NCBI GenBank assembly: GCA_046563655.1
Contig: CM102289.1
Location: 7,936,001 to 8,000,000 of the forward strand
Reading direction: 5' to 3'
DNA from: Yuukianura sp. NJ FZ-2021
Lineage: Eukaryota
Length of the DNA stretch: 64,000 nt
The position numbers and the translations under genes are program-made. The notes under the pieces were generated by a model. It was not told where the DNA came from. It did no database searches and saw only the letters and a program-made list of their open reading frames with translations. Numbering within the stretch: position 1 is the stretch's first letter; every line of letters begins with the position of its first letter. Below, in pieces: positions 9,178 through 62,672 of this stretch.

Positions 9178-12100
9178 TCATTTCACTGCGTCGTCGGATG
9201 CTGTATTGATTTTTTCTAAATCGTCGCATGACTTGGATTTTGGAGATCTGCTACTGCAATACCAAAAAAAAATTATTACTAATTTGAAAAAGAATTCGAA
9301 ATTTTTTCCCAGTTTTTTGAAAAATTATACCTTGACTTCCTGGCTACAATTCGTCGAGTGACTGTGATAAGAACATCTCCATTTTTGATTTTCTTAAAGA
9401 CAGCTACAGCTTCTGCGTGTGACAATCCTTGAAGTGGAGATCCATTTACTGTCAAAATTTCATCACCTAGAAAAAATTGAACAAAAAAAAAGTTTAGCTG
9501 AAGTTCAAAATTCACTTTTTCAAAAACCATTTTTCAAAATTCCATTCAAGTCGCCACAGACTGCCACTTAAACCAAAATCCCAGTAGCTGCGACACTCAA
9601 CATTTTCTAGATTTTAATACCCACTTCAAAAATTTTGAAGTGATCCTTGTGCCAACCTACGCCGTTTCCACAGTTACGTCTGGAAGGATTTCCCTTGCGA
9701 AGGAAGGATAAGAGGAAATCATAAATAGAAGTGTCAATATTTTCTCTTTTGAAAGACGAAACCTAACCTAACTTTAAGCCTGCCAAAAAGCTTCTTCTTC
9801 TCCCCCATGCCAAGGAATGTCACGTCTCATCATTATTTGCCTCCTCGTTCCGCACGTGGAAATAATCTAATCCAAGAACTTTCTCCTCCTTTCACTTCCA
9901 TAGACAAAATTAGAGTAATTGTCAAGTCTAAAGAGAAAGTCACTACACAACTACTATGCTACGGTGTAGTCTCAAAACTAATTTCATCTGAATAAGATAT
10001 CTAATCCTGAAATCTAAATGTAAAATTTAGAAATTCAAGGAGCTAGAGCATCTCGAGAATTCTGAAAACTAGGTTCCATTCATCACTTACCGTAAAAATT
10101 CTCATACAAGCCCAGGTTTCTATTCATTTTCTAAGTAAATTTTGTGCTCTACCTCCGGCTTCTATTGAACTGGAGACTCGGTTTCTATTGTAAAGCGGCC
10201 TTATTGGAACTTTTACGGTAAAAACTTACTCTTGCTGCCTTATGAATTAAGTATAGCACTTTGTACTGCCATGGCGTTTCTCATTACATTAATAACCTAA
10301 CCTACGCAAAAGCTTCTAACATAACCTAGTTCCAATTTAAAGTTTTCCTTTTCCTTAGTTGGAAACTGGAAATTTACAATTTCACAACCAATTTTAGTCA
10401 CTGCAAATAATCATAAGGAAAAAACCAAATTTTAGAAATAGTAGTTTGCACATCCAATTCCAAAAATGTCAAAAATGGTGGTTTAGATTTTGAACTCTCG
10501 AAAATTTTAGTGTAATGTTTAGTTTGGTGGAAAATTTTCCAAAATGTGTTGCAGCGTCGTCGTTCAATTTTCATAAAATTTAACTTTTTCCACCATGCAT
10601 AACATAATTTTTAACATAACTTTTTTCTCAAAATGAAAGTAAAAATAAAATTTTACCTTCATAGAGAGATCCCATTTCGGCTGCTTGTCCATTCGGAAAA
10701 ATCGTTTTGACGAAAATGCCCATGTGACCTTTAGGTGAATCTCTGCCGCCTACAATTGAAAATCCAAGGCCTTTCTTTCCCGCTCCTTTTTCAAAGGCAA
10801 TGACATGTGACTTGTAAAAGTAAGAAGAAGAGGAAGATGTCGAAGATGAAGTTGAGCCAGAACTTCCAGAAGATGAATTACTTCCAGAAGAAGAAGTAGA
10901 AGATGACTTTGGTTTTCTTGGTAGAGTACAGAGATTAGTCGTAATGTAATTGTAATTAGGACTTCCATTATTTTCAAATTGAACTCTGGAAGAGGCTGGA
11001 GCGTGAAATCGATTTTGACTTTGGATTACAGCATCTGCATCGACATTGTAATACGTGAGTGTAGAATGGCGTCTGTTCCGTTTAGACGATCCAACAGTCG
11101 CAGTTCCGCTGGAAACCAAGTGACCTCCAGGCGTGACCCCACCGATATTTCCTGGATGCAGAAACTGATGATCAGAGCAAGCTTCTGGATGCTCAGTGAC
11201 GGGTGACGGATGTTCGCTACTTGCACTTCGACGGTAGATTACCGGAACTTTCTTCCTCAAAGAACTTCGGTCTCCGTCACAGTGATCTTCTCCTGGAGAA
11301 TTCTCCAGGAGGGGGAGACTGAAAGTAAATGACGGTGGAATTGAACTTTTCCGTTGTACATTTGTCTGTTTTTTCAAAAATGGTAAATCTAGGGTGTAGG
11401 GAGGCTGGTGATGATTGGAGGTCACAAAAGCGTCGTCTTCTTGGAACGTTTCGACTTCAGCGATTGTGTCATGTGAAATGGAGATACCGCGTGACCGAGG
11501 TTGCAATTGGTCTGACTTTTTAGTATTCATCGTCCAGTCTGGTCCTAACAAGTCACGTTCTTCCAGTCCACCAGTTCTTGTCCTATTGAGCACTGCGATG
11601 TAGTCAGCTTCTGATGGAGGGAGACTTGTAGGGTGACTACGCGGAAGTTGATTTGTCGTTGTTGTGGTTGAGTCGAAGTTGGTAAAAATTTCGTGCGTTC
11701 CGGCCCTGGCGATTAGTAAGTCCAATTGAGCACAATTAATTGCAGTAACTTGAAGCATTAGATTGACTTCGGTTGGACTCAGACCGCGCAGGCGCTTGCC
11801 GTTGACGTTCATCAGCACATCTCCAGTCTCCAGTCGCCCATCTCTGTAAAAAAAAAATAGATTGAAAAATAAGTTAGAAAAAATTGTCCAAAAAAGTAGA
11901 AAAATGATATCAAACTCTCGTTAGAAACTTCCGCCAGCCGCCATCTATATGCTGAGTACAATTTTCCAAAAGTAGTTCGCACGACTCCATATGCATTAAA
12001 TTCTCATAAAAATCAACTTAAAAAAGAACTTCTTCAGAACATGACTTTTTTTTAGAACATACTGCTGAAATACTCCGTAGTTCCTTAAATTTTTTCTTTT

Positions 12101-15100
12101 TTGAAATAACTGTCAAAAACTTTTTTAAAAGTCGTACAACTCCCGCTTCAGCAACGATCCGTGAGCATAAAATTCCAATTTGCATTGAATTGCGTAACCT
12201 CCGCATAAGTTTGCTTTACGGGTTCGTTTGACTCCCTAACTTTTCGTTCACTTTTGGTCGTAAATATTTCCTCATAAAAAATTCGCATATTGCAAAAAGT
12301 TTACTTTTGGCGTTCTGAGTCATAAAATTGGCAAAGTAGGGTTCGGGTGATGCTTATGTTTGCTTTTTTTGAAACAAGCTGCCGGCAATATGTTATTCAT
12401 AGTGACTCCTATGCGTAATGTAAATATTGCGCAATATGTAAACTTTCAAATAAAGTGACAAAAAGTTTGAGTAGTTTCAAAAGAATGATCAAACATATCT
12501 TTTTATAAGCCTTCCAGAAAAAGCCCAACTACATAAATCATGAATTTTCAACGACAAGGGCACGCACGACGGCAAAACTTGAATTTCAAAGAACGTGAAT
12601 CTCAAAGACGCGTGCTTTTAGTTGCGGACATTTCAAGCACGTCGAACCATGAAAACGTTTTCGTTTTTTATAATAGTGCGGTTGTTAAAAAATTTTGGAA
12701 AGTTTATTCAGTGTATCGTAAGAATTATGTATGTAGAATTATCGGCTGTTCTTTTTTTGTGTATTTTTCCATTTGATATAAAATAAAATTGTGGAATCGT
12801 TTGTTTGCTGACGAATTTTTTTTGGACACTGAAAAGCGGCAAAATTTCAACAAATAAAAAGTTGAGCAACGCAGAAGTTTGACAAGCGTCTGCAGGAGCG
12901 TCACTTTTTATGAAAATTTGAACATGACATGAAAAACTTGCCCGCTCTCCCGCTTTCTCTTGTCCACTTTCTCCTACATCCTTGAATGTATTATTCAAAA
13001 ACCGGTTTTTCATATTTTAGTTTACATTTTTTGTTACCTTTGAGCTGGAGATCCACTTGCAACTGCTTGTACAACGTGTTCCAAAATCCCCTTGTCATCC
13101 AACTGACTCTGAATAGAAATTCCAAGGGACTCGTCCAAGGCCTTCCGAATATGGAACAAGTGAAATCGTCTTTTGGAGGACATGACTTGTGGTGGTGGGG
13201 TTGGTGGTGGCTCAAGGTGGCTCACTTGGCTTGAATCTTGCCCCGCCGCCAATAGTGACGGTGGTGACTCAGTCAGAAATGGAGATGGACTTGTGTCAGA
13301 CTTTGTACAGATTCTGAAAATCTCACGACTTTCGAGACATGGGATTCTATTTTTTCCCAAGACTGAGATGGGTCTGGCATAAATTGGTCTAGTACTCAAA
13401 TTACTATCAGTTTCAGTAGTTTCCTTTGGAGTCATCATGACACCAATGTTAGGGTGAGGGGACATAAAGTTAGTTTTTGGTGACACGATATCACTCTTGC
13501 GTCTTACTAGAGCCGTTTTGGACTTGTTCACTTGAAAACTAGTTTCAAAAGACAGGATTCGAGCTCCAACGCCATTTCCTGACCCCTCATCATCCCACTG
13601 TTCTGACTTCATTTTGACTTCATCTAACAAAACTTCAACACTTTTTGGTTTTTTCATATTCAAAGAACCAAGGCTCTGGTCGTCTAGATTTTTTAAACTG
13701 TCAGAGTCATATCCCGATTCATTAGATGAAATGTAACTGGATCCTGCCGTTTGCAGAGGGTTCAAGGGTAGGGGGCCCTTCGTCACCAGTTGATTCTGGA
13801 AAGAGGGTCTCTCCATCCTGTCAAGCATTTCACAACTGCTGCTAGCACTTTTGACTGTTCTGGGATTTCGACTAGATTCTACCCGGATTCGGGCATTACG
13901 GTCTCCCCCTCCTGCATTTCCCGGGAGATTTGAACTGATTTTCATACCTGAAGTATCACTAGCAGTTGTGGGGTAGCTGGCTCTCGAACTGGGACTGTTG
14001 CTTCGAGCTCTTTTGTTTCTTTTCACAACCAAAACTTGACTGTTCTCAGTAGCCTCGGAAGTACTTCTTGAGAAACTTGGAGGTAGATCCAGTCCGTCGC
14101 TACTTTGAGAACTGACGAGAGTCGTAATGGAACTGAGTCCTTTTGAGGGTAGTTGTTGTGATTGTGCTTCCTCAGGCAATACACAAAGTTTTGAACGGAT
14201 GAAGCCATGAGGAAAACCGAATTTTTTAGTCGATGGGGTGCAGGGAGTCGAAAAACCTTCGACGTCACTTCCTCCGCCGATGGTCGACACGAGGTTATCA
14301 AGGCTCTGGGCCTTCTTGGACGAAGGGGGCCCTTGGGGAGGGCCCTTATTGTTAGTATAGTTAGGATTAGTCATAGCATTATGCACTTGTTCCTGTCCCA
14401 CGCTAGTCTCAAAGGCTATAGTATGGGAATCATTTGTCATCGTGAGGCCATTAGTCATAGACTGACCACCGGGCCTCTTAGGAGAAACCGCAGAGTCCAA
14501 ATCTGTGGCTGGGTCATCTCCGGCCACGTAAGACGGCAGAGTTGACGTGGAACAGCTTCTAAAAAGTGGTGAACTCTTGACACCGTGGCGGTTGAAGTAC
14601 GGATGCTGCGACTGCGCAGAGTTTTGGTCACGCTTGGACACTCTAGCGGGACTTTTGGAACGACTGGAAGGTCGAAGCGTTCTGAACAAAATTTTTTCTT
14701 TGATTGACTCTACTCGATTGACTGCAGAAGACAAGCTTTGACCGTGGTGACCCACCGTGGGTTTCATCGTGGCACTTTTCCGGACACAGTGACCTTTGAA
14801 GTTAAGGTAAAACTCGTCTTGGGAAATGCTTGACATGCGCTGTGGAGTTCCTAATGTACAGGAACCAACAGGAGTTCTACTGCGACTGCGACATTTGTCT
14901 CCAAGGTTCTCCTCAGAAGCAAATGGTTTTCTATAGATTTGTGAATTTTTGACCTTTTGACCCTGAAAATGACCTTGAAACGAGTCGCGGTCACGCGTGG
15001 CTGCTCCTGAAGATGGTTTTTGCCTAAGGTCATCATCTGGCGTGACGAAGCCTTGTTTCGGTGGTTCTTCTGAGTAACTGCGATAATCATCTGTACTTTT

Positions 15101-18100
15101 GCTGGTTGTTAAGGAAAAACGCCATTGACGTTGCAAAGTTTTCGAATTTGAAGATTTTGAACTGACGGGAGACGGAATTTCGGAAAAATCCGAACTACAA
15201 CGAATGTCACTTCCATGCTTGAAATGGTTCCAAGTTTTGCCCATTTTCTTGCTCCAAGTTGCAAAACCTATAAAAAAGTAAAAAAAAAAACTAAAATAAC
15301 AAATTCCGCGTCAAAAAGTTTAAAAAGATTTTAATTACGAAATTTTTGTGGTCCAAATTTTTTAAACAGCAGTGCAAGTCCGAAACTGGAAAATGTTCAG
15401 CCCAAGCTTTTCTTTTCGTCAATTTTTTTTTGTAACTGGCATTTTTTTCCCAAATTTTTTTTTCTGCTTGGCGTGTCTAATTACTATTCCAAAAGGGTAA
15501 AAAATGAAAACGGAAAAAGGCTCAGCTTATTAATTTTTTGTTCTAAAAACTTTTTTGTCTCGTACAGCTTCCATTTTTGAATTTTTGAACAGCCGCTTTT
15601 TTAAAATTGCAACGAAGAGTGGAATTTCTTATTCAGCAAGACAACAACAACATAGGCTTAAGCATTAGCCCTCCTCCTGTGCCTGAATCCGCAAACAAGA
15701 TTAAGTTGTCTCATTTGCAATTTTCCTTGTCAGTGACTCCTTCACTTTGGCGTTTCATTTAAAGTCAAGGGCTCTTCTGGGAACATTCGTTACTTCACTG
15801 CTCCGAGCGAACATTCTGCGCCGACATCTTATCTCTGTGCAAAAAGTTGAAGAAAGTTCTATCTTTAGATCTTCTTGTTCCCATATGTCATGACGAAAAT
15901 TCCTAAGGACTTAGGCATAACATTAGTTCCACTTTGTCGTCACGAACAAAAATTCCCGCTAAAGGAAACCTTAAACCTAACACTTTTAGGTTCAAACAAA
16001 AACCCGGGAAGATTTGTGTTCAAAAGATTCTTCAATTTCAAACAACGAGACAGCTTAAGATCAGTTCAAATGATACTTTGAACAAAGGAATGAAAATAAC
16101 AATGGAAGGAAGATTCGAACCCATGACACATCTATCATTAGATTCAATCATCCATGATCTCCCAAACAGAACAATAAACAGATATGGGAAAATGGTCACC
16201 GTTTTTTTGTTCGTATTGTTAAAAAGTTTGTTTGATAATTTTGAAATTTTGAATTTGAAAAAAATGGAACCTAAAGAAAGTCATGGTTCGAATCTTAAGG
16301 GCGCGGCGGCTCTTTTTGTCTGAAAAGCGTGACGATAAGTCTAGCACGGCTTTTTCCCAAGGAATCGACCGCAGACTAAACAACAAAAAAATTCCATGAT
16401 TTTGCTTTCTAAAAAAAATGCAAAAATTTTTTTTTTGAAAACAAAATTATGGATCGGTGCTGTTTTTTTCTTTCAAATTCAGGCGGTAGCGCTCATCGCT
16501 GATATTGATCAGGACTAGAAAAGACGAGCTCAATAACAAGGAGTATTTAGGAAACAATGGAGCGCGTGCCGTATGAATTTCGGCCTGACTAGTTTGAATA
16601 CCGTGCCATATAATTTGAATTTCCCTCCAAAGATCAGAATCAGTTAGGACTCATCTGCGCACGATCATGCTTAAACATGCAAACGTCGTTTGCCAAATCA
16701 ACCGACAAGAACAATGGAATAATGCTAAAAAACGGAAACAGTTTTGAATTTTTTACTTTTTAAAAAAAAATTTGGTGGGGAATTTTCTGGTATGAACTGA
16801 TGATTTGAACAGATCAAGTTTTTTTTTGCTAAAAAATGCTATGTTGATTACTATTGCCGTCAAAACTGTCATGAAATTAAAGTTTTATGGTGCACGGGTT
16901 GTAAAACGTGTTTCAAAAATTCAAAATTGCAGTTTTTCAAAAAGAAATAAAATGCATGCGATTTCCAAAAATTTCCCATTTTGTTCTTGTTGCTAACCGG
17001 GTTCCTTTGAAGACTATGCGTCACACCAACAATTTTTAGAACTTTGTTTTTTTAACTTTGAGGTATCTTGAAATACGTGAATAGATATCCGTTGTTTTTC
17101 AAAAGTGAGTCATTTCCGTTTATTGGCTCCAAAAATAAAACAGGATGAATTTATGATTCAAAATATTTTGGTTGTTCAAGGAAGTGGCAAGTTGCGTACA
17201 CAAAACAATGACGACAAACTGTGGTGAGTGGTGAATAATACAACTCTGGATGTTGTGAGCTTAAAAGCTGAACTAAATTTTTGAAAAAAGGAAAGGAAAA
17301 AAAATTAGAAAACTTTTAGTTGATGGAATTGATGGAATGGTAAGAATTGTATTCCGTTGTTATCAGAAAATCCAAAAATAATAAAAACTTTCCCGAATTC
17401 TTTTCTTTTGTTTTGTCCGCTTTTTCTGCGTAACTTTCTCCCCCAATTTTCATTTTAGCTTTGGCTCAGAATTTATGGTGTGCCACCAAAGCCAAAAGTT
17501 CCTACGCCCATATCCCTCGTTATGAAGCAGAACTTTATCTACTACGAAATGACAAAAGACCGAAACCAAATTAAAACGCTCAAGAAAGTTTTTCATTCCT
17601 TTAATATGAAAAGAAATTCATCTCTTTTTACTTTCAAAACAAACCATTAAAATTTTCCAAATTTATTAACCTTCATTTTCTAATGATCGGATGCAAAAGT
17701 TTCAAATTTAATAGCTTTCCTGAACTTTCTCTTCCAATTTTTATTTTAATAGATTTCACATTGGCATATAACTGTTTTAAATAATAAAAAAAAAGCGCGT
17801 TAAAACTCATAATTTTTGTTTTCTTACAACGGCAAAAAACTTGTTACGAAAAATTCAAAAGTTTTCAAAATTCCATATTTCAAAACAATAGTTTTTGACG
17901 AAAATTATTTGAAAAGTGTTGCAATTAACTGTTTTGTGAATACCAGGAAAAGTTATTTTTCAATAGCAAGGAAATGAACGAGGCCTTGAACGTTTTAATT
18001 AAAAGTTTTACCGCCAAAACTTTTTGGTTTTCAATTAAATGTTTCTGAAAAAGGCCGTTTAAATTGCAACTTTGAACTTTCGTGCTGCCTTTAATGTGTG

Positions 18101-39324: not shown

Positions 39325-42300
39325 TCAAGCATCAATAAGATTGTCACATGACTGTGACTTGAGAGTGCGGTCCTTGGATTTCTTGGTGCGGCGACTCACA
39401 GTGACAACGACGCTGCCAACTTTTACTTTTTTGAATAACGTCAAAGCCTCAAGGTGTGTCAGACCATCCACCGGAGTTCCATTAATGGCCAAAACTTCAT
39501 CTCCTGTAAAAAGAAAAAAAGTAAATAAAACAACTATTTTACAATTTAACACCAGAAAAAGTCAAGTACATCAAAGAAAGTGAAGACAATGGAGTCACTT
39601 TCACCCGAAAGTGAAACTGAATCAGGAAAGCAATTTCGACCCTTGTCGCTACTTTTTAGACAAAAGTATCTCAATTATTTTGTTTTCTTTAAAAAAAGAA
39701 GTCTTCCATGTTAGGGCACCTTCAGAGAAAGTAGAAACTTTCTCTGTTACTTTTTACAAAGGAAAAGCTAGCTGACCAAAATATTGATCCAGAAAACCTT
39801 TGGTGAAAACCCTATGTCAAATAACTATTATTTATAGTTTCAGCGGGAAAACACCGGTTGGTAGTAATGTGGTCCAGCGCCCACGGAACAGCATAGAATT
39901 CCAAAAGAGAAAGTTTCAAAAACAGGCTGAAATGGGAACCGCAATGCCATTATTTTACTGATCTCTGACTTCCTGCAACTTCTTTGATTCCAAAACCCAA
40001 AGTAATCCAAAACTTTGTTTAAAAAAAACTTTTCAAAAAAAACTTTCAGCATAATGCTATATGCACCGTATATAGTATGCTGCACTATTTTCTGATCCTA
40101 CTTTTGTTCAAAGTTGAGTGACCTTTTCAAAAATTGTGGTCGTAAATGTAATAGCCACCGAATTTAGTTTTACCTGTTACGCTTCCAGACAGAAGTCTGG
40201 AGCCCAAATCTTGTCTGAATCCAAACTTCAGAAAACTAAGAAAAGTTTTATTGATTTAAGAGCATTTTAGGTTTGTATTGATTTTGGAGCCAGAAGCCTT
40301 AACCTGTCACTACCTCACAATCCTCCGAACAGTAATTACTAACCTAAGGTGACAGGTTAGCAGGTAACAAAAAAAAAGTTAGGCTAGGTTTGTGACCTGT
40401 CGTCGCCAAAGAACCTAAAAAAACTTGAAGTGGATTTCTCACCTTCGTGGAGCCGTCCATCATCCAGGGCTTGGCCATTAGGCAGAATACTTTTGACGAA
40501 GATGCCCATGTCCCCTTTGGGTGAATCCTTTCCTCCGACGACTGTAAATCCCAAGGGCTTCTTTCCTGGGCCCTTTTCATAAACTATCGTCATAGAAGTA
40601 ACTAGAGAGGACTTGGGTCTGCGCGGAAGTGTACAGAAAGAAGGTGAATCGTCTTTTTCAACTCTACTGACAGTAGCTTCTGTAGCTGGTGAGTCCAGGG
40701 CTAGGAAGGCCGTTGATGAACTAGATTCCATGAGCAGATGAGGTCTGTGATGAGAATGAGGTCGATGATGACCACTGTGGTCACCAAAGTGAGGTCGACT
40801 AGAACTGGATGAAGGGCGGTCAAGCAGGTCAGCTCGACTGAGTTCCTCGGTGGACATTTTGGCAAAAGCGATTTTCTTCCTTGGCCGAGCTTTGATTGTA
40901 CTGCTGAGGTCATCTTCGTAGCCTCCAGAACCAACAGGTCCATCATCGTTGTATGAAATCTTGATGATCGTTTTATTTGTAGCATCCTGAACGATTGAGG
41001 ATGATGAGGATGCTGAGGATGAAGATCTAATTGAGCCTGATCCGGTTGATCTTGGTCCAGAAGGAGGCCTGAGCACGACCAAATCCATGTCCCGCTTGAG
41101 CACTGATTTCAACTGCGAAGCAACTTCGACTGGAGACAATCCACGAACGAACTTTCCATTGATGCTGATGATTTCATCTCCAAGTTGAAGCTCTCCTTGA
41201 CTGCAAACCAAAAAAGTCAAAGTTAGATAAACTTAGGTTATGCCTAAAAATAACTAAGGTTAGGGTAAACAAATTCTCAAAATTTTGATTTCTCAGAATT
41301 TTGATTTGTTTGCAGAGTTATAAAGAGATAGAATAAGTAAATGGTTAGGTTAGGTGACGTCTCCAACGATAAGTGCATTTTGTACTTAGAAAGCCCAACC
41401 TTCTAGAAAAAGACTTTCTACTTTTGAAAATGGGCATGACAGTTCACGTGGAAAAGATTCAGTAGTTGACCCGTTAAGTTTCAAAAGTGAAGGTAAACTG
41501 GCAATATAGAGCACAAGGGATTGTAATAAATTGTAACAACTTTTCTTATGCTTTTTGAACAATGGGTTTTACAAATAATAAAATTTTATTAACTTTGAAA
41601 AACTGAATGTCGCAGGAGTAGAAAGCACAAGGCAACTGAGTGCTTCTGACGCAAATTTCTAAGAATTGAGACAATTCGTTCCAGAGAAAGTCGTTTTTGC
41701 TTTTCCCTGGAAAATGTCAAATGTCAATAAACATGAATTTGAAATTGGCATTGTCAGGAGTCATTTTCCTGGAAAAGGTAAATATTGAAATGGTCCTTGA
41801 TACAAATAAAAAGTTGTTCAAATAATTCAACTTTTAGAAAACAAGGCAATGCTAAAAAGAAAAAGTAAACAAGAGCTTGTGCATTAGTTTGTGCCCTTTA
41901 TGCCTTCAAGGAATAGAAACTTTTCGTTTTTGAAAAGATGGAAACTTTTAACTTTTAAAAAATTGGAAACTGCTTTTGTTAAATTCAAAGTTTGAGGGAA
42001 ACTATTGTGTGAAGAAGTGACTGGAAATGGGATTGTCGCCTTTTGCTATCGAGTAACTTTTCCATTTAGGTGACACAGAATTGCATTTAAAAAAAGTTAA
42101 GTTTGAAAATCGTATTATATCCTACCCCGATTATCTTCAAAACGGAACAAACTTTTTTTGAAAAAAACACGAACAAAAAGTTTCAGTTACTTTGGAACCT
42201 CTTAAGAGACTTTCAAAGCGTCAGCAAAAATGTTCTGCTTTCACTTTGAAACGAAAGTGAAAATTTTGAAAATTTGTTAACCTTCAACATTTTTGAACAG

Positions 42301-45300
42301 TTAAGCTTAACGTTTCCCCACAAAAAACTTCTATCTCGCATATGAAAATTTGTGGATTTTTCTTTTTCTTTTTCACCGCTAAAGAAGCGCATCTTTTTTT
42401 TAAGTACGGGTAATTGTAAACCAATTAATTTTTTCTGAAGAATTTAAAAATGAACCTGAAAATTGTTGGATTTTGAATGCTTTACATATGTTGGTTGAGA
42501 AAACTGTTCATGAAGGAATGTGGGTCGTGTATTTTTATTATATCGTTTGAGTGTTGCATTGCCTTGTTCTAGATTTGAAAACGGTGCTGGGATCTTTTTC
42601 AAATTTTTTTTTTCGAATCTTGGCTACTCGCATTCCTTCATGATTTCTTAAAGCTACACTTATTCCTCTAATCACATTGTTCATCAACCCTCAAAATTTT
42701 TTAAAAATTGTTTACAAATATTTCTGAGGACTAAAAAATTTCCAAAATTTTTGATTCCGAAAATCTCACCTTGCAATTGGCGATTCTGGATGAATAGTTT
42801 TGACAACATAGCCACACGCTGAAGCTTCATCTAAATTCTTATCCAGCGTTACTCCCAGCTCCAGCGTCGATGAAGTGCTAACCTCCAGCGCAGTTCCACC
42901 AAAAAAGCTCTTGGATTTTAAAAATGGGTGTTGAAATGGCGCCACTTTTCGAATTCGTACTAACTTATACTCTCCATGAGCATTTGAAGTTGGAGCTGCC
43001 GATAAAGTGTTACTAAAATTCTTGGATCTGACTGGTGTATTTGGACGTACGAGGGCCTTTGACCCACCGCGCCATGAGTTCCACCTTTCGGTGGGGCCGC
43101 TGCTGCCACCATGGTGGCTCGCTTCTGAATCTTGAAACAGGGAGCTGCTATCCAAAGTTTCGTTGACTATTCCACTGTCTCCGTCAGAATTATTACTAGC
43201 CGAACCTGATCCACTACCAAGTCGGTGGTCAAAGTCATCCAAGGTCACTCCAACGATGTCCACGGGGGTACTTGTACATAGGGGGCCCTCAGATTCGTAC
43301 AAAGGATTTGCTCTGAGGTCAAAGGTCGTCTCACCTTCTTCATCATCATCAAACATAACATTGTTAGGTTGAGACGGAATTTCACCAAAACTTAAGCTCC
43401 TCATCTTTCTCAAACTTGAATCCACCTCATCTTCGGAACAACCTTCATCTTGCTTTCTTTGTTGTTGTGAGGCCTCGTTTTTGTAAAATCTTGAAAAAAT
43501 TTTAAGCTTTGATTTCGGAGTTGGATGAGAGGCAGACGAGTTTTTGTTGTTATTGGAAAAGCATTTGTCTGAAACTTCTTTGAGCTTCAATTTGAGTTGT
43601 TCATAGGAAGATTCTTTGGAAGAAGACGATGCAGAGGAGCCTTTTGGAAGTGGAGGAAGACCAAACACTTTTCGTTCCCGTTCTGACTCAAGGGACAGGG
43701 TACTTGGTCTGGAAATCCTTTTCATGCAAGGACTACTTCCACTGATCATGGAATGATTCAAAGAATATTCTGAACCCGTCTCTGATCGAACAGACTCTCG
43801 TCGGTCTGACATGGAGTAATTGTTAGTGTTGACCTTCTTGTACCCCTTAGGAATTGGTTGAAATTCGTTAAGTCCGTTGCTACTCCAACCAATACCGGAA
43901 CTTCCATTTGATTGACGACCATATTTTTCATCCAAGCCAAGCAGGTCAAAGGGGTCAGACGGCATCGACAGCGTCCGTTCACTTCGAAACCGATTTCTTG
44001 AAATCTTTGAAGCTTCGTCAGCTTTAGTTGAACATGGTTGTGGTGGAGGTTGGACTTGAGGCAGAGGAGTTCTTCTTGGTGATTGGCCATAAGAAGAATA
44101 CGTATAAGCCCCGGAGTTTGTTAGGTTAAGGGACGGGGGTACTTCGGTGGATTCTGGCACAGGGTCGGTGGGTACTGGCGGGGGTGACCAGGGACGAATT
44201 CTGCCGGCATAGGACATGTGACCTTGAGGTTGACGATACTTGTGATTTGACGGAACAGTGAATTGGTGATTGTAGGCGGAAGAGGATGACGAGAGGTAGT
44301 CGTCACGGTTGTCATCAAGTCGACTACTCCGCTGCTGTGACTGTTCTTCTTCAATTGAATCTTGGCGCAGTTTTCTTCTCAACCATGGCGAAATGCCTTT
44401 TCAAAAAAAAAACAAGAAAAAACATTAATCACACAAATCGAGCTCAGCGAACAAAGAAAATAGATTTTTGGAGCACAAATTTGGGCAATGGAGCAATTTA
44501 ATTTTCCGAAAAAGTTTGGGACAAAAAAGTTTTTTTCTTCGAGATGGTCATGACCGTTTCAAAACCAAAGTTATAAACCCAAAATTTTGTGCAGCAAAAC
44601 ATATGGACTCGAAATTACAACAAAAACAGAGCCTTTTTTAACATTTTTGTAAAAACTTCCGAAAAAAAATTACGAGTTCTCACAAAATTGGATTTACTTC
44701 TGAATTTTGTTTTTGGAAGAATTGCAAAATTTTGAAAATTGTCAGCGCCATTGTTAAATTAACTTTCACTTTTTTTGCTAATTAAGTTAATGAATTATTA
44801 ATTACCAGTATTTTTCTGAATGAACATGAAAGCTGAATCATGAAATTAAAATTTTTTAATATTTCAAAAATTACTTTGCATTTTCCTTTCACTTGAGTTT
44901 CAAAATTGCATAAAAATGTGAAAGTAAAAACAATGAGTTACAACTAAAGTATAAACACAAAGAAAAATAAAATGACAATGGACAAATTATTTAAAATTAG
45001 GACCCAAGGAAAGACAAATTAACTTTTTTGGAATTTGACATATATGAGCATAAGGTGTGGACAACTCAAGGGAATTTCAAATTATGAAAAAATTACTCAT
45101 TTTTGAAAAATTGCTCTCGCAGACGCGCCTTTAATTTCACTTTCTACAAGAAATCTTCCGAGCCATTGTACTTGAGCCGAAACTTTGCAAAAATTTTGAG
45201 CGTCGCATCATTCACAAAATTTAACATCAAAAATTTTCGTGAATGATGATGAGCGATGAATCACAGTATTTTTGTGTCCTTTTCTACAGGAAATGGAATC

Positions 45301-57434: not shown

Positions 57435-59877
57435 TAACAAAGAATTCAGGATGTGACTTTTGGACAGGGCTGTAACCACCGCCGGGTAAAAACGGTCTAC
57501 TTGTTTCAACTTTGCAAATTTATTCCAAAAACCAAAACCAAATTCAAATTTTTCCACTCTTAGCCATTTTGGCAAACCTCGTAAAAACTGAAGCATGGCT
57601 TTTGAGGGGGAGGGGGATGACTCTTTTCAGTTTTAGCATTTGTAGTTTTTTGTACTTCTAAAAACTTTGTTAGTACAAACATAAACTCCAAAAATAGTGT
57701 TTTGCGCATCATCTCTAAAATTCTGTGCAAAAGTGTGTCCTTTGAACACATGATGCGAAAGATGACAATGAAAATGATGATTGCCATTCCATTTCAATTC
57801 AAGGTTTCCGTGTTTGAGGTTGTAAAAAAACACTTTTCCCAGAAGTCATACCTGAAGTGTAGTACAAAGTAAGTAGTGCAAGAATCTCTGCTTTTTAATT
57901 AAAAAAAAAGCCTCCCCTGACCATCTCATCTTCATTTTGTTCAAAAACAAGATTTATAAAACATAAAAAGTTTTCAAAAGATCAACCACTGCGTTGTTGT
58001 TTCCTAAACGAACCTAAATTGTTACAAAGACAATGAAATCGAGAGACAATGTTGAAAACAATTTGGCAAATGAGGATCAAAACAATGAAATAGTTTTGGT
58101 AATTGCAAGATGCTGCTGCGCCCTCTGTGACAAAAATTTCAAGAACGCTTTAAGGAGTGACCAAACAAAAGATGACATCGATACATAAATATAACCTACA
58201 AAAAATTTTAGTACTGTGCAAAGCGTGTTTTGTAAAATGTAGAAAAAAAGTAAATTTTTGATGACATGTTGAATTACAGTGGAAAAGTACGTCTGACTGT
58301 TCTTTTCATTGTTACTACTTCGTTTCGTTTTCAAAAGAATAAAAGTAAGTCTCTTCAATTTCAAAATGTAACCAAACTAGTTTTAGTGGAATGTTGGCGT
58401 CGGTGTTGTTTTTCTGTACACTGATCCTATGACCAATTCCTTCCTTTACTACTTAAAAGTAATTCAAAACAAAGACCAGCTTTTAAATAATTACCCTGAA
58501 ACTGAAATATGAACTACGAAATACTTGGGAATTACGAACTACTTAAATATTTCAGACCACAGTTGCAACAGAATCAGATAACAAAAATAAGAGGATTCAA
58601 CAGATACTTATTATTCAACGCGTCACTTTGGCCTCAGACGTAGCGTGTTACCGAAGTACAATGATCGGGTTCATGTGGCTCACGGCGGCAAACGGTTCAA
58701 AATGTTTGCGAACACAGTTCAAAATTACTGTCTGTGCAATGTACATGTGTCTGTTTCTATGTACTGCCTGCTTCTGCGCATGCGGTTGATGAATAGTGTT
58801 AAAAACTTCCGTGTTGGCTTTTTTTTCGCAGATGACGAATTCAACTTTTATAGAATTTTTTCTTTAGTAACTCGGATGCAAAAGTGCGTGTTTAGTGCAG
58901 GATGCGTGCACAATTTTTTCATAGGAAATTGGATTTCAATAATTTGAGTTCAATTATTGTAAAAACTGGGGCTAACAATTATTGATATGTATTGATTTGG
59001 ATTTGGCTTAAACACATTGTTTTCCACCAATATTACAAATGTCAGCAACACACCAACACACGATTGAATTTTTTAACCAAAATTCCTGATTTTTAAAACT
59101 ATTTCAAATTTTCCGTAAAAATTGTGAAGTTCTAAACGTAAAACTTACTTGTTTTAGTGAATGGTGTTTCCACAGATTCGAAATTGTCCAAAATTTGGAA
59201 AAACGGAGATGACTATGTTCTTTTGAGTTCTGTGAGGATAATGATGGCCTTCACTGATGATTCAGCTTAGTTACCATAACTAGTACGTAATTTGCGGTTA
59301 ATTGCAGTACGGAATCGGCAACAGTTAGGAAATTAAAGCTGCAAATTGATGACTTCTCCGCAGCAACTTTTCCAAAAAGCACAAACGGTTTGCGCAAACA
59401 ATTCAACCAAAATGGCAAACTTGTTGCAAAAAGTTGTGGTTTTCGAACAAACTAAAATTACACTTTTGACCTTTTGCACCAAAAGTTGAATTTGAAATCC
59501 TTGATCAAATTATGCAGTTATGTTTCAAGTATTTTTTGATGTTTTTCTGTAGCTGGATTCCCTTGCCTCACTTACTTAAAGGCCGCCTAGCTTCTCACTG
59601 CGGCCAGGGTTCCCAGATTCAGTCACTGGACATTTCAGTCGTCCGCCCGAAAGCGGCTTTTGGACGTTTCGGTCCAACCCCTTTCAGTCGACCGAAATGA
59701 CCGAAACGTATTTCCACCAAAATTGGGCGCGAAACTATTTGAATTTGAGGGTACAGAATTAGAAAATTAGTCAGGAAAATAGTAAATTAGTAGAAACTGG
59801 TCAAAACAACTGTACAAAGCACTTATTTTGAGTTTCAGGATAATTCTGACCTCAATCAAAGGTGAAGGGAGCAGTGG

Positions 59878-59923
59878 ACTTGGTTTGTCAGTGCCTGAGA
59901 AATCAGTGTCAGCGCAGCCAAGT
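59878..59923 (+). ncRNA. Putative structured RNA/ssDNA motif, copy 1
   Basis: ACTTGGTT-TGTCAGTGC-CTGA(GAAA)TCAG-TGTCAGCGC-AGCCAAGT. Confidence 0.5.
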
Positions 59924-60202
59924 TAATTATTTTCCTAAAATTGGGAGAGTTGTAGTTACAGAATTGAAATTATAAAGACCCTCCAGTGTTTTTCAATTCA
60001 GCAGTGACATAATTATTAAGTACTACATCTTCATGTCGTCTTCAGTTTGTGTAAACTCAGGGTAGTGTCAAGTGCCATAGCAGTACTTTAATCGGGCGGA
60101 AAGGAAGAGTAGGATATATATCGTTTAGCTTTAATTTTGAACAACTTCCGGTAACTTACTTATCCTAGTTTCACGATAATCCTGACCTCAATCAAGGGTT
60201 GA

Positions 60203-60271
60203 CGGAACAGTGGACTTGCCTTGTCAGTGCCTGAGAAATCAGTGTCAGCGCGGGCAAGTACTTCTGTTCCG
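60203..60271 (+). ncRNA. Putative structured RNA/ssDNA motif, copy 2
   Basis: CGGAACAG..ACTTGCCT-TGTCAGTGC-CTGA(GAAA)TCAG-TGTCAGCGC-GGGCAAGT..CTGTTCCG; compensatory stem changes relative to copy 1. Confidence 0.5.
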
Positions 60272-60523
60272 AAAATTGGGGAGAGTAGGAGTTTATAGCT
60301 TAAATTACAAAGACTCGTGTACTTCTCAATTAGCCAGTGACATATTTATTAGTGAATCGTCATTGTCATTGTTGCTATCAATCGGTGCAGGCAGGGATTT
60401 GTAGATTGTAATCAAACCAGTGCTTGTTTCAACCAAGGATCAGACGAAGTGACAAAGAAGGGTTACGTTTTGTAATGTTTATGTTCGTTTTTTATTTTCA
60501 ATAAATACAAATTTCCTTTATTG

Positions 60524-60582
60524 CCTTACCCAAATGGCGCTGACATTGTCCAGTGACAAGCACTGACACATTTGGGTTAAGG
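60524..60582 (-). ncRNA. Putative structured RNA/ssDNA motif, copy 3 (opposite strand)
   Basis: The minus strand reads CCTTAACCCAAATG-TGTCAGTGC-TTGTC(ACTG)GACAA-TGTCAGCGC-CATTTGGGTAAGG: the same two 9-mers with largely different but fully paired stems. Confidence 0.5.
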
Positions 60583-61857
60583 TCAGGTCAGGCGGCAATT
60601 GTAAGAGATACTTCAACTATGATCAGTTCACTTAAGAGTATTTTTTACAAAAAAGAATAAAGTGATGTTTACTTTGCTTTTGTGTTTGATCTGTTTAAGG
60701 AATGGAAGTAGGAATTGATGATATGAACCTTATTTTAAGTGTAGTTGGCAGTAAACCAACTAATCGAATTAATTTCCAAATTAATTCGAGTTTTTGACTA
60801 AATTAGGTATTGGAAATTGAAACAGCTGAGCATGTAAACAAGAAAAATAGAACCAAAAAGAAAGTTTGGATTTGAAATTTTCGAGTTTCGCGCCCCGCGC
60901 ATGCGCAAAGCGCATTGTGACTTTTGGTCGGACATTTCGGTCGTTTCAGTCATTTTGGACATTTAAGACCAAAATTTCAAAAAGTGACCGAAACTGGGAA
61001 CACTGACTGCGGCATTTCCAAAAAATCAGGAATCCTAGGCTTCAGGAAGGTGACTCATAAAGTGAATTGCACACAAAGTGGAAGATGTCTATTGTCTTTT
61101 CCAAGTCGTCCTGGTACACCTTGCCCTCCCTCGCCTCTGACGGCGTCCAATTTGCAGATGACCATCACGTCACACCAAGATGACAAACTTGACCGCTCCC
61201 TGTGTATGGCGCTCTTGCGTCTATGTTAACGTCACCAATTTGCGACAATTCGCACTCACTTTTATTTTGAGGTCACTTGTTCATTCACAAAAAAAATTGG
61301 GACCAACTTTGGTTCTCCAAATATTTGCTCAGTTTCGCCAAAAACGTTATCAAGCAAGTAATAATCAGTGCAAAATAGGAAATGAGGTCATGTCAACACT
61401 GTTTGACGGGAAGTTTTGAATTGTGTCCTGGATTGGATCCAGCATTTTTGTAGGTTTTGTTATGATGTTACGCAACATTTGCGTCCTTCTGAATTTAAAA
61501 TTTCGAAAAGCAGGTGTAGTTGGGCGAAATTTTTCGAACAAAAGATTTAAAAAAAATTTTTTTTTAGACTGATGAGGGTTGAATTAATCGATACGCAACT
61601 TGTCAGTTTTTACATGAATTGTTTTGTATCGTTGCAAAGTTAAAAAAAATGGAAGTTGTGAGCTGTACACCTTTGCATGTTTTTGTGTTAGCGTTTATAT
61701 GAAAGCTCGTGAGGGTGACAGGTGGTTTAAATTGGCATTGTGAGTCATCCTGTACATTTCAACTTTAATGGTGTTCAGAAGTTAGCTAAATTTCAACTAA
61801 CTTCAAATTCATCATGACGATTATTATAATAGCGAAGCTATTATGATAAAAGTGGTT

Positions 61858-61902
61858 TGTCTGTCTGTCTGTCTGTCCGTCTGTCTGTCCGTCTGTCTGT
61901 CC
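61858..61902. repeat. (TGTC/CGTC)n tetranucleotide microsatellite
   Basis: tgtctgtctgtctgtctgtccgtctgtctgtccgtctgtctgtcc. Confidence 0.95.
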
Positions 61903-62301: not shown

Positions 62302-62672
62302 GTGTCCACCGGGTGTCACCTGTCACTTGCCGGGTGTCACCTGTCACCTGTTAATTGCCGGGTGTCACCTGTCACATACCGCATGTCACCTATCACTTGC
62401 CGGATACCGGGTGTCACCTGTCACTTGCCGGGTGTCACCTGTCACGTGCCGCGTGTCACCTGTCACACTCACGTGTCACTTGCCGCGTGTCACCTGTCAC
62501 CCTCACGTGTCACTTGCCGCGTGTCACCTGTCACCCTCACGTGACACTTGGCGCGTGTCACCTGTCACACTCACGTGTCACCTGTCACCCTCACGTGTCA
62601 CTTGCCGGGTGTCACCTGTCACGTCTCACCTGTCACCTGTCACGCCTCAGCTGTCACGTCTCACATGTCAAC
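62302..62672. repeat. TGTCAC-based minisatellite (7-bp subunits, ~21-bp unit GGGTGTCACCTGTCACTTGCC)
   Basis: Dozens of TGTCAC cores with variable higher-order units; central repeat of the Helentron-like element. Confidence 0.95.

Follow-up and report, generated by a model that had tools for sequence, protein, structure and literature searches.

A candidate two-fold pseudo-symmetric hairpin with invariant loops, carried by a hAT-type transposon of Yuukianura sp. and present in a coding exon

The bulge-helix-bulge (BHB) structure of archaeal mRNAs and tRNAs is a 4-bp helix with a 3-nt bulge on each side; its recognition is described as independent of sequence and driven by the backbone, and a eukaryotic enzyme cuts a BHB placed in an mRNA in vitro (PMC10485636). 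IRE1 sites consist of a stem of about five pairs and a 7-residue loop of the form CNGNNGN (PMC3149027). The constitutive transport element (CTE) of D-type retroviruses contains two internal loops related by 2-fold symmetry, each with the sequence AAGACA and each binding one unit of the export factor NXF1 (PMC4330393). Against this background, a folded motif was investigated in 64,000 nucleotides of the eukaryote Yuukianura sp. NJ FZ-2021 (assembly GCA_046563655.1, contig CM102289.1, positions 7,936,001 to 8,000,000 of the forward strand), hereafter referred to as the window. Three copies of the motif sit in a 1409-bp transposon-type element extending from position 59605 to 61005, and a fourth instance, L045, was found in a coding exon on a metagenome contig.

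In one of the two loop folds considered here, designated 5-4-5, the motif passes from an outer helix through a 5-nt bulge UGUCA, a 4-bp helix and a UGUCA bulge on the opposite strand into an inner helix. With the BHB it shares the opposite-strand bulges, the 4-bp helix placed between two further helices and a pseudo-two-fold symmetry suiting a symmetric enzyme. It differs in that the bulges comprise 5 nt (UGUCA in four of four instances) instead of the 3 nt given for the BHB, in that bulges and central helix are invariant, and in that the host is a eukaryote with spliceosomal introns. As in the IRE1 sites of XBP1 and HAC1 mRNA, two unpaired sites of like sequence lie in a coding region as candidate targets of a dimeric nuclease; however, the 9-mers of the motif are located between two helices, and no 7-mer within them fits the CNGNNGN of IRE1 loops. 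The nearest functional analogue is the CTE, with which the two-fold loop symmetry is shared, but the CTE is much larger, its AAGACA is absent from the sense-strand loops here, and the carrier is a DNA transposon, to which the motif is not confined, being also coding.

Integron attC sites are folded single-strand palindromes with variable stems and few kept unpaired bases, bound by two protein monomers. They resemble the present motif in that stems vary freely and unpaired bases and geometry are kept, but they are bacterial, DNA-only recombination sites whose conserved boxes are mutually complementary and not direct repeats. Moreover, the capture of gene fragments by DNA transposons (transduplication, e.g., by Pack-MULEs) is known. 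Common to such capture and to the element described here are a non-autonomous cut-and-paste transposon with terminal inverted repeats (TIRs) and a target duplication, and decayed exon pieces that are duplicated and occur in both orientations. Here, in contrast, only a folding segment of about 50 nt is recognizable, with loops perfectly kept and all else diverged. Literature searches on the 9-mers, on BHB motifs in transposons or metazoan mRNA, on template switching and on the CTE turned up no published description of the motif.

The exact 9-mers TGTCAGTGC and TGTCAGCGC stand between outer stem and inner hairpin in all three copies, and the letters of the stems differ from copy to copy with pairing retained (Table 1). 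From copy 1 to copy 3, the outer stems read ACTTGGTT/AGCCAAGT, ACTTGCCT/GGGCAAGT plus CGGAACAG/CTGTTCCG, and CCCAAATG/CATTTGGG; the inner stems are CTGA/TCAG and TTGTC/GACAA. TGTCAGYGC was counted seven times in the window versus 0.45 expected, a number reached by none of 100 shuffles. The three pairs account for six of these sites; the remaining one, at 44740, stands alone, as expected by chance. For the paired 9-mer pattern, three occurrences compare with 0.00 expected. No further copy in the 64 kb came to light in a mismatch-tolerant scan or with a covariance model derived from the three copies, for which filters were switched off; the next match of the model scored 13 bits (E = 0.42).

Copies 1 and 2 belong to a single 336-bp tandem duplication and are therefore not independent, a correction to the earlier note on this locus, which listed three copies. 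The duplicated units correspond to about 59831-60020 and 60167-60353, with a conserved block of about 190 nt. Between them a 30-nt core is identical at 30 of 30 positions, compared with 114 of 163 in the remainder of the unit. Both units also contain a second hairpin, the pairs of which are retained via one- and two-sided changes (RNAalifold on units 1 and 2, hence on two sequences only). The conserved CAGTGACA pointed out in the same note is present and kept between the units, which leaves no variation for a check of its pairing. Upstream of all three copies, a CTGACCT-containing block was observed (59839-59865, 60175-60201 and, on the minus strand, 60583-60600); local alignment of the copy-3 and copy-2 flanks yielded p = 0.046.

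Table 1. Positions of the motif copies, of accompanying structures and of the ends of the carrier element in the window.
Feature	Position	Strand	Remarks
Motif copy 1	59867..59936; core 59878-59923	+	Covariance-model score 71.9 bits
Copy 1 stems	Basal 59867-59871 with 59932-59936; outer 59878-59885 with 59916-59923	+	
Copy 1 loops	9-mers 59886-59894, 59907-59915; inner hairpin 59895-59906	+	
Motif copy 2	60203..60271; core 60214-60259	+	Folding z -5.05; covariance-model score 69.5 bits
Copy 2 stems	Basal 60203-60210 with 60264-60271; outer 60214-60221 with 60252-60259	+	
Copy 2 loops	9-mers 60222-60230, 60243-60251; inner hairpin 60231-60242	+	
Motif copy 3	60524..60582; core 60529-60576	-	Folding z -3.60; covariance-model score 62.3 bits
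Copy 3 stems	60524-60528 with 60578-60582; 60529-60536 with 60569-60576	-	
Copy 3 loops	9-mers 60560-60568, 60537-60545 (minus-strand sense); inner hairpin 60546-60559	-	
Second hairpin, unit 1	59939..59998	+	10-bp stem with G-U pairs
Second hairpin, unit 2	60274..60331	+	
CAGTGACA block, unit 1	60002..60009	+	Includes exact complement of the 5-nt bulge UGUCA
CAGTGACA block, unit 2	60335..60342	+	Conserved between units
Left target-site duplication, 8 bp, ACTGCGGC	59597..59604		Identical to 61006-61013
Left TIR (starts CAGGGTTCCCAG) and subterminal region	59605..59724	+	Matches reverse complement of right end; summed contig depth highest here
Right subterminal region and TIR (CAGTGTTCCCAG on minus strand)	60885..61005	-	
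Right target-site duplication copy, 8 bp	61006..61013		

For the evaluation of pairing, the three copies and L045 were combined in a structural alignment of four sequences fitted to the covariance model, a procedure which favours structure; the stems were already evident from the raw sequence, before model fitting. In this alignment, 96.7% of 60 cells were paired and 9 of 15 pairs were changed on both sides. None of 500 shuffles matched any of five measures, and pairing fell to 28-39% when the partner was slid by 1-3 columns. Between copies 1 and 2 alone, the outer stem shows four changes (G-C to C-G, U-G to C-G, U-A to U-G) with all eight pairs kept. Furthermore, the 135-nt units obtained folding z-scores of -2.95 (plus strand) versus -0.04 (minus strand) for unit 1 and -4.74 versus -2.76 for unit 2, the plus strand folding better because many pairs are G-U. 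For copies 1 and 2, the difference speaks for a fold of one particular strand and for RNA rather than DNA.

The two 9-mers can be folded in two ways, both of them two-fold symmetric. The first, proposed in the earlier note, consists of a bulged U, 2 bp, a 4x4 loop, 2 bp and a bulged U. In the second, which is the 5-4-5 fold, GUGC at the end of the first 9-mer pairs with GCGC at the end of the second, the T/C difference between the 9-mers amounting to one G-U pair. This GUGC/GCGC pairing is possible in four of four instances (100% of cells), with no position varying and with a competing fold within 1 kcal/mol. The 5-4-5 fold is the minimum free energy (MFE) structure of copies 2 and 3 (ViennaRNA) and the RNAalifold consensus of units 1 and 2; under DNA parameters it is the better of the two and the MFE structure of copy 2 and L045. 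Taken together with the shuffle and slid-partner controls, the positions of the three copies, their invariant 9-mers and covarying stems, the plus strand favoured by G-U pairs in copies 1 and 2 and a two-fold symmetric folded motif with invariant loops stand as the note had put them. Its GNRA loop applies to copies 1 and 2, which carry GAAA, and is not a conserved trait, other loops being present in copy 3 and L045. Its statement that no known family was recognized agrees with Rfam 15, whose families (including hammerhead, hairpin, twister, pistol, hatchet, HDV-like, snoRNA and miRNA) gave 0 matches in the 64 kb at gathering score; up to E = 10, five weak matches (four microRNA families and one renin cis-regulatory element) were obtained for 59500-61100, all outside the motif. 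A ribozyme, also suggested there, found no backing, given that no Rfam ribozyme match appeared up to E = 10 and no conserved core exists beyond the 9-mers.

L045 was identified by scanning metagenome contigs for the two 9-mers at a distance of 8-24 nt, which yielded at least 119 loci; together with control loci of viral (30) and prokaryotic (at least 120) origin, 274 matches in 269 loci were listed. L045 has the full architecture with entirely different stems, namely the outer stem AGTCCG/CGGACT and an inner stem forming an 11-bp perfect palindrome. Its stem sum of 16 (outer 6 plus inner 10) compares with 7 for the next best among the 274 matches listed, and an outer stem of at least 4 combined with an inner stem of at least 3 was seen among them in L045 only, apart from one marginal 4+3 case. 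The remaining control loci represent hexamer repeats or chance. By the covariance model, L045 scored 28.6 bits versus 27.1 bits for the best pre-selected control (100 of 268 control loci scored), so that it was not set apart from the controls; stem counts were used instead of this score because the model gives no credit for the long inner stem.

The L045 contig carries part of an intron-containing gene whose two open exons, flanked by GT..AG, span 135 and 123 codons, and the motif lies in frame in exon 2. There the 9-mers read (G)TG TCA GTG C, i.e., V-S-V-(P), and (G)TG TCA GCG C, i.e., V-S-A-(P). The motif is thus not restricted to the transposon, and the earlier idea of a device belonging to this transposon family is not supported; moreover, the encoded peptide marks a whole RNase_T-like family (see below). 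At L045 404-454, a decayed in-frame tandem copy adjoins the intact motif (peptide ..SEPKIDVCTFVSAPD); in this copy, 6 of 9 letters of the first 9-mer and 8 of 11 pairs of the inner palindrome survive, and the second 9-mer is unaltered. A Pfam scan of the L045 exons assigned no family, RNase_T included, and a word-index search with exon 3 returned no longer relatives.

In the word-index search, relatives of the L045 exon protein were P0001 (86% identical) and P0002 (30%). A profile search against 1.84 billion representatives recovered 35 proteins at E ≤ 0.001, all from metagenome or Logan assemblies, seven of which were set aside as long repetitive proteins matched in their low-complexity part only. 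Family members comprise a conserved N-terminal part, a variable linker and the start of an exonuclease domain. One of six scanned members, P0008, passes Pfam RNase_T (PF00929) with 25.2 bits versus a cut-off of 24, and, as a lead, the ESM Atlas associated L045 exon 3 with RNase_T clusters (score 0.91, 178 shared features). The linker of nearly every member contains two V-[SP]-[VA]-P units, frequently at a distance of 7 residues and with P-[ED]-x-S between them, P-E-K-S standing out as the commonest inter-unit linker; both units are present in the consensus VSVP...SVSVP of a 24-sequence alignment. Giant repetitive proteins (P0004, P0020, P0021, P0023, P0027, P0031 and P0033; 1292-6460 amino acids) match the linker profile in 6-16 stretches each, so similar S/V/P-rich repeats occur there.

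In the L045 frame, the core of copies 1 and 2 translates to SVPEKSVSA, which is identical to nine residues of P0005 and in which the GNRA hairpin supplies the codons of P-E-K-S; stops occur in the frames around it. In copy 3, NVSV.. and ..MSAPFG lie in frames that differ from each other. With their core translating to the family peptide and their frames broken, the transposon copies look, by their sequence, like captured and decayed fragments of an exon. L045 and all transposon copies use the same six V/S/A codons in the 9-mers, and the chance of this codon choice by usage alone was calculated as 1e-3 from the L045 exons and 1e-4 from the open reading frames (ORFs) of the window. Comparison of the family proteins with the window gave no other match; a tblastx match of STSVPKI to STSEPKI had E = 8.

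To judge whether the fold is no more than a by-product of the peptide, protein-level covariation was used as an indirect proxy. In part the fold is such a by-product: S-V, written TCN G, and P-[ED], written C CN GA, complement each other through their codons, and the repeat unit thereby brings a 4-bp inner stem with it. For the residues that precede unit 1 and follow unit 2, the fold additionally predicts complementarity at the first and second codon bases. This applied to 14 of 19 neighbouring unit pairs, of the types S/D, S/E, C/Q, T/V, A/A and F/N, against a background of 0.11 and a shuffled mean of 4.3, and none of 20000 shuffles reached 14. In the T/V, A/A and F/N cases, it is the far partner that the outer residue matches, and not the near one, which is the nested architecture.

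The carrier of the three copies is bounded by an 8-bp target-site duplication and short TIRs, the two features by which the hAT superfamily is defined, and it is assigned to this superfamily because of that duplication with such ends. The TIR 12-mer is present at the two ends of the element only, and the arms are alignable over about the first 120 nt only. No ORF of at least 150 amino acids was found within the element, which is therefore regarded as non-autonomous. Contigs of runs X1 and X6, representing two organisms, join 59596 to 61006 with 8 shared letters; such an empty site implies that the insertion is polymorphic or young. Summed contig depth was highest at the ends of the element, with second peaks at the bins of copies 2 and 3 (3183 and 2158 in run X1, versus 375-830 in adjoining bins), and X2 and X6 showed the same pattern as X1. 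Summed depth is not copy number, and the pattern hints that more contigs share the 54-nt bins of copies 2 and 3 than share their flanks. Moreover, shorter relatives in X1, X2 and X6, in which 59747 is joined to 60167 and 60257 to 60509, keep the copy-2 module and copy 3. In a soil-metagenome run, two low-depth contigs of 151 letters match the interior of the element with 1 and 4 differences, the second one also gapped. The right subterminal region includes a GC-rich palindrome at 60890-60913 (GCGCCCCGCGCATGCGCAAAGCGC), which was also flagged as a terminator-like hairpin.

The window has a GC content of 33-40%. Long open exons were observed on the minus strand at 10628-15244 and 40384-44382, two of them with PDZ domains (E 2e-5 and 5e-14), and the element may sit in an intron of this PDZ-exon gene or beside it. 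Just upstream of the element, 19-nt inverted repeats 631 nt apart (58831-59499), accompanied by several short stretches that match its left subterminal region (59021, 59096), may represent a second small element. Downstream, a (GTCT)n-type microsatellite occupies 61855-61902, and 21- and 28-bp units with abundant TGTCAC (CCGGGTGTCACCTGTCAC...) make up a GC-rich tandem array at 62303-62660, 1.3 kb past the element; the array has the TGTCA core in common with the 9-mers and may consist of subterminal repeats of another element or of a satellite. ARAGORN predicted no tRNA, and a scan for sigma-70 promoters and terminators remained at chance level, such a scan being irrelevant to a eukaryote.

Structure, covariation, presence in a coding exon and the peptide hallmark are the observations from which the favoured explanation proceeds. 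It is held tentatively, as possible and still short of probable: the motif would be a conserved, two-fold pseudo-symmetric hairpin acting as a folded single strand, most likely RNA, with its home in an exon of a gene family from which a transposon captured it. A variable outer helix and a variable inner hairpin would hold two copies of UGUCAGYGC face to face, so that either loop fold could present two identical unpaired faces related by a dyad. A dimer, or one protein in two copies, might dock on these faces, the partner possibly being the nuclease product of the gene itself, in which case the site would act in feedback. The home would probably be the exon that encodes the linker in a divergent family of RNase_T-like exonuclease genes, where the 9-mers would double as codons for V-S-V-P and V-S-A-P, and the hAT-type non-autonomous transposon would carry non-coding exon fragments in which loops were kept and stems were kept or even lengthened. 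RNA rather than single-stranded DNA, a dimeric partner and the direction from gene to transposon are parts of this explanation that we infer. New in this study are the 5-4-5 reading of the 9-mers, the coding instance L045 and the peptide hallmark with its codon-complementary flanking residues.

Several results weigh against this explanation. Only four DNA instances are available, two of them belonging to one tandem duplication. Copy 3 and L045 lack G-U pairs and fold about equally on both strands. The two loop folds are within 1 kcal/mol of each other under RNA parameters, the MFE structure of copy 1 is a competing fold and the central 4-bp helix never varies; as its four pairs show no change, covariation cannot choose between the folds. 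The 60-nt flanks of L045 and the transposon copies share no significant similarity (best p = 0.089; p ranging from 0.046 to 0.98 when the comparisons of copy 3 with copies 1 and 2 are included), hence capture and its direction are read from the core alone. At the level of residues, S before a unit and D/E after it are part of the repeat unit itself, and because the unit supplies these residues, S/D, S/E and C/Q do not count as independent evidence. If they are dropped and lineages are counted once, 4 of 9 lineages are compatible (T/V twice, A/A, F/N; p = 0.012), with P/E, L/I, T/G, S/V and R/E as the five incompatible ones. A second outer-stem layer is compatible in only 3 of 19 pairs, so the outer stem is short in genes, and in the inner stem of P0001 a change of E to K with an unchanged partner Ser is one uncompensated change.

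The strongest rival dispenses with any function: a self-complementary coding repeat (7-residue S-V-[SP]-[VA]-P-[ED]-x), acted on by template switching during replication, would make, extend and 'correct' palindromes, the 9-mers being kept by the peptide and the transposon carrying captured pieces with grown palindromes. That hairpins can be created and maintained by template switching has been described (10.1101/2021.04.15.439925). This rival is rated as unlikely, yet as a serious contender. It is in line with the conservation of the peptide units across the family down to about 30% identity, with an inner pairing that is nearly always [DE] with S and is supplied by the repeat unit, with the uncompensated change in P0001 and with the perfect 11-bp inner palindrome of L045 beside a decayed tandem copy, as expected after a recent switch. 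Stems are, moreover, longest where coding constraint is absent (8-13 bp in the transposon versus about 4-6 bp in genes). Correction, however, should render the 9-mers complementary, whereas in four of four instances the 9 + 9 letters are still non-complementary and show one and the same T/C asymmetry. The identical synonymous codon choice is improbable from usage, T/V, A/A and F/N at the same two positions in separate lineages would need repeated events with fixed borders, and the plus-strand bias of units 1 and 2 is unexpected for a process confined to DNA. A BHB-type site for non-canonical processing is considerably less probable and would be a surprise. Here a dimeric endonuclease would cut once per UGUCA bulge, and ligation would remove the inner hairpin and one 9-mer, 21 to 33 nt, in frame in genes. 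The 5-4-5 geometry fits, with opposite-strand bulges exactly 4 bp apart, variable flanking helices and MFE status in copies 2 and 3, and 10 of 19 unit pairs are spaced by 7 residues, the reading frame being preserved throughout in genes; yet any coding repeat forces in-frame spacing, the spacing in copy 3 is 23 nt, an alternative fold is equally stable, and the bulges are of 5 and not 3 nt and invariant, whereas BHB recognition is described as independent of sequence. A bolder version, a shade less credible again, sees a new 5-4-5 BHB type serving as a spliceosome-independent in-frame mini-intron or cleavage site: a dimeric endonuclease would cut both UGUCA bulges in mRNAs of the exonuclease family, removing 7-11 codons or destroying the message as feedback, and the hAT element would spread the signal to host transcripts in either orientation.

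On a par with the processing site, and thus improbable as well, is the view that the 9-mers are double-stranded DNA sites for a TGTCA-reading transposase domain or host factor with incidental palindromic flanks. Of the 20 TGTCASYG sites of the window (5.65 expected), nine fall within the 1.4-kb element, where both strands carry them; the 21- and 33-bp spacings come close to whole helical turns, and a TGTCAC-rich array lies 1.3 kb away. Nested stems in four of four instances versus 0 of 273 other matches listed would nevertheless remain unexplained, as would the codon-level complementarity in the gene family and the strand asymmetry; a transposase site would be unexpected in a host coding exon, and just one exact 9-mer in the 64 kb lies outside the pairs, a number at chance level. 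Double-stranded sites, which the earlier note had named as the outcome that would overturn its proposal, are accordingly weakened by the paired stems and the coding context, although they retain the small share just described. Marginally less probable is a single-stranded DNA element acting in cis on transposition or replication, either strand of which could fold owing to the two orientations. The copies lie 270-670 nt from the ends, the shorter relatives in X1, X2 and X6 retain the copy-2 module and copy 3, and the 5-4-5 fold is the MFE structure of copy 2 and L045 under DNA parameters. Against it, hAT transposition is a double-strand cut-and-paste reaction that is not known to involve a single-stranded intermediate, a host-type gene family also contains the motif, G-T pairing is poor in DNA and DNA-model energies amount to only -5 to -13 kcal/mol. 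Least credible of all is that units 1 and 2 are genes for a transposon-carried small RNA with two hairpins: the conserved block of about 190 nt, the two covarying hairpins and the plus-strand bias would fit, but neither an Rfam match nor a tRNA was obtained, inspection by eye revealed no H box and a T-run in unit 1 only, and copy 3 and L045 have the first hairpin alone. Further candidates were dropped after inspection by eye: a hammerhead (CUGA..GAAA in copies 1 and 2 only), an iron-responsive element (CAGUGC not in an apical loop), an H/ACA small nucleolar RNA (no H box, upper stem of 4 bp), a microRNA precursor (4-nt loop, conservation in mid-arm), a nested miniature inverted-repeat transposable element (stems differ, no target duplication at the stems), a hAT excision footprint (inner sequence not the complement of the 9-mer ends), a tiny GT-AG intron (40 nt in L045, out of frame) and translational bypass (gap without stop).

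If the fold of the favoured explanation is functional, one short sequence would stand under two codes, its loop letters being fixed both as RNA and as V-S-V/V-S-A codons, and the flanking amino acids would be forced into codon-complementary paired changes. A eukaryote would then possess an RNA motif that is new, two-fold symmetric and BHB-like in geometry and has bulges of specific sequence, and a DNA transposon could copy such a signal away from its gene. Should template switching be the true cause, the gene family and its transposon copies would provide a worked example of how a self-complementary coding repeat can mimic RNA covariation, even at the protein level.

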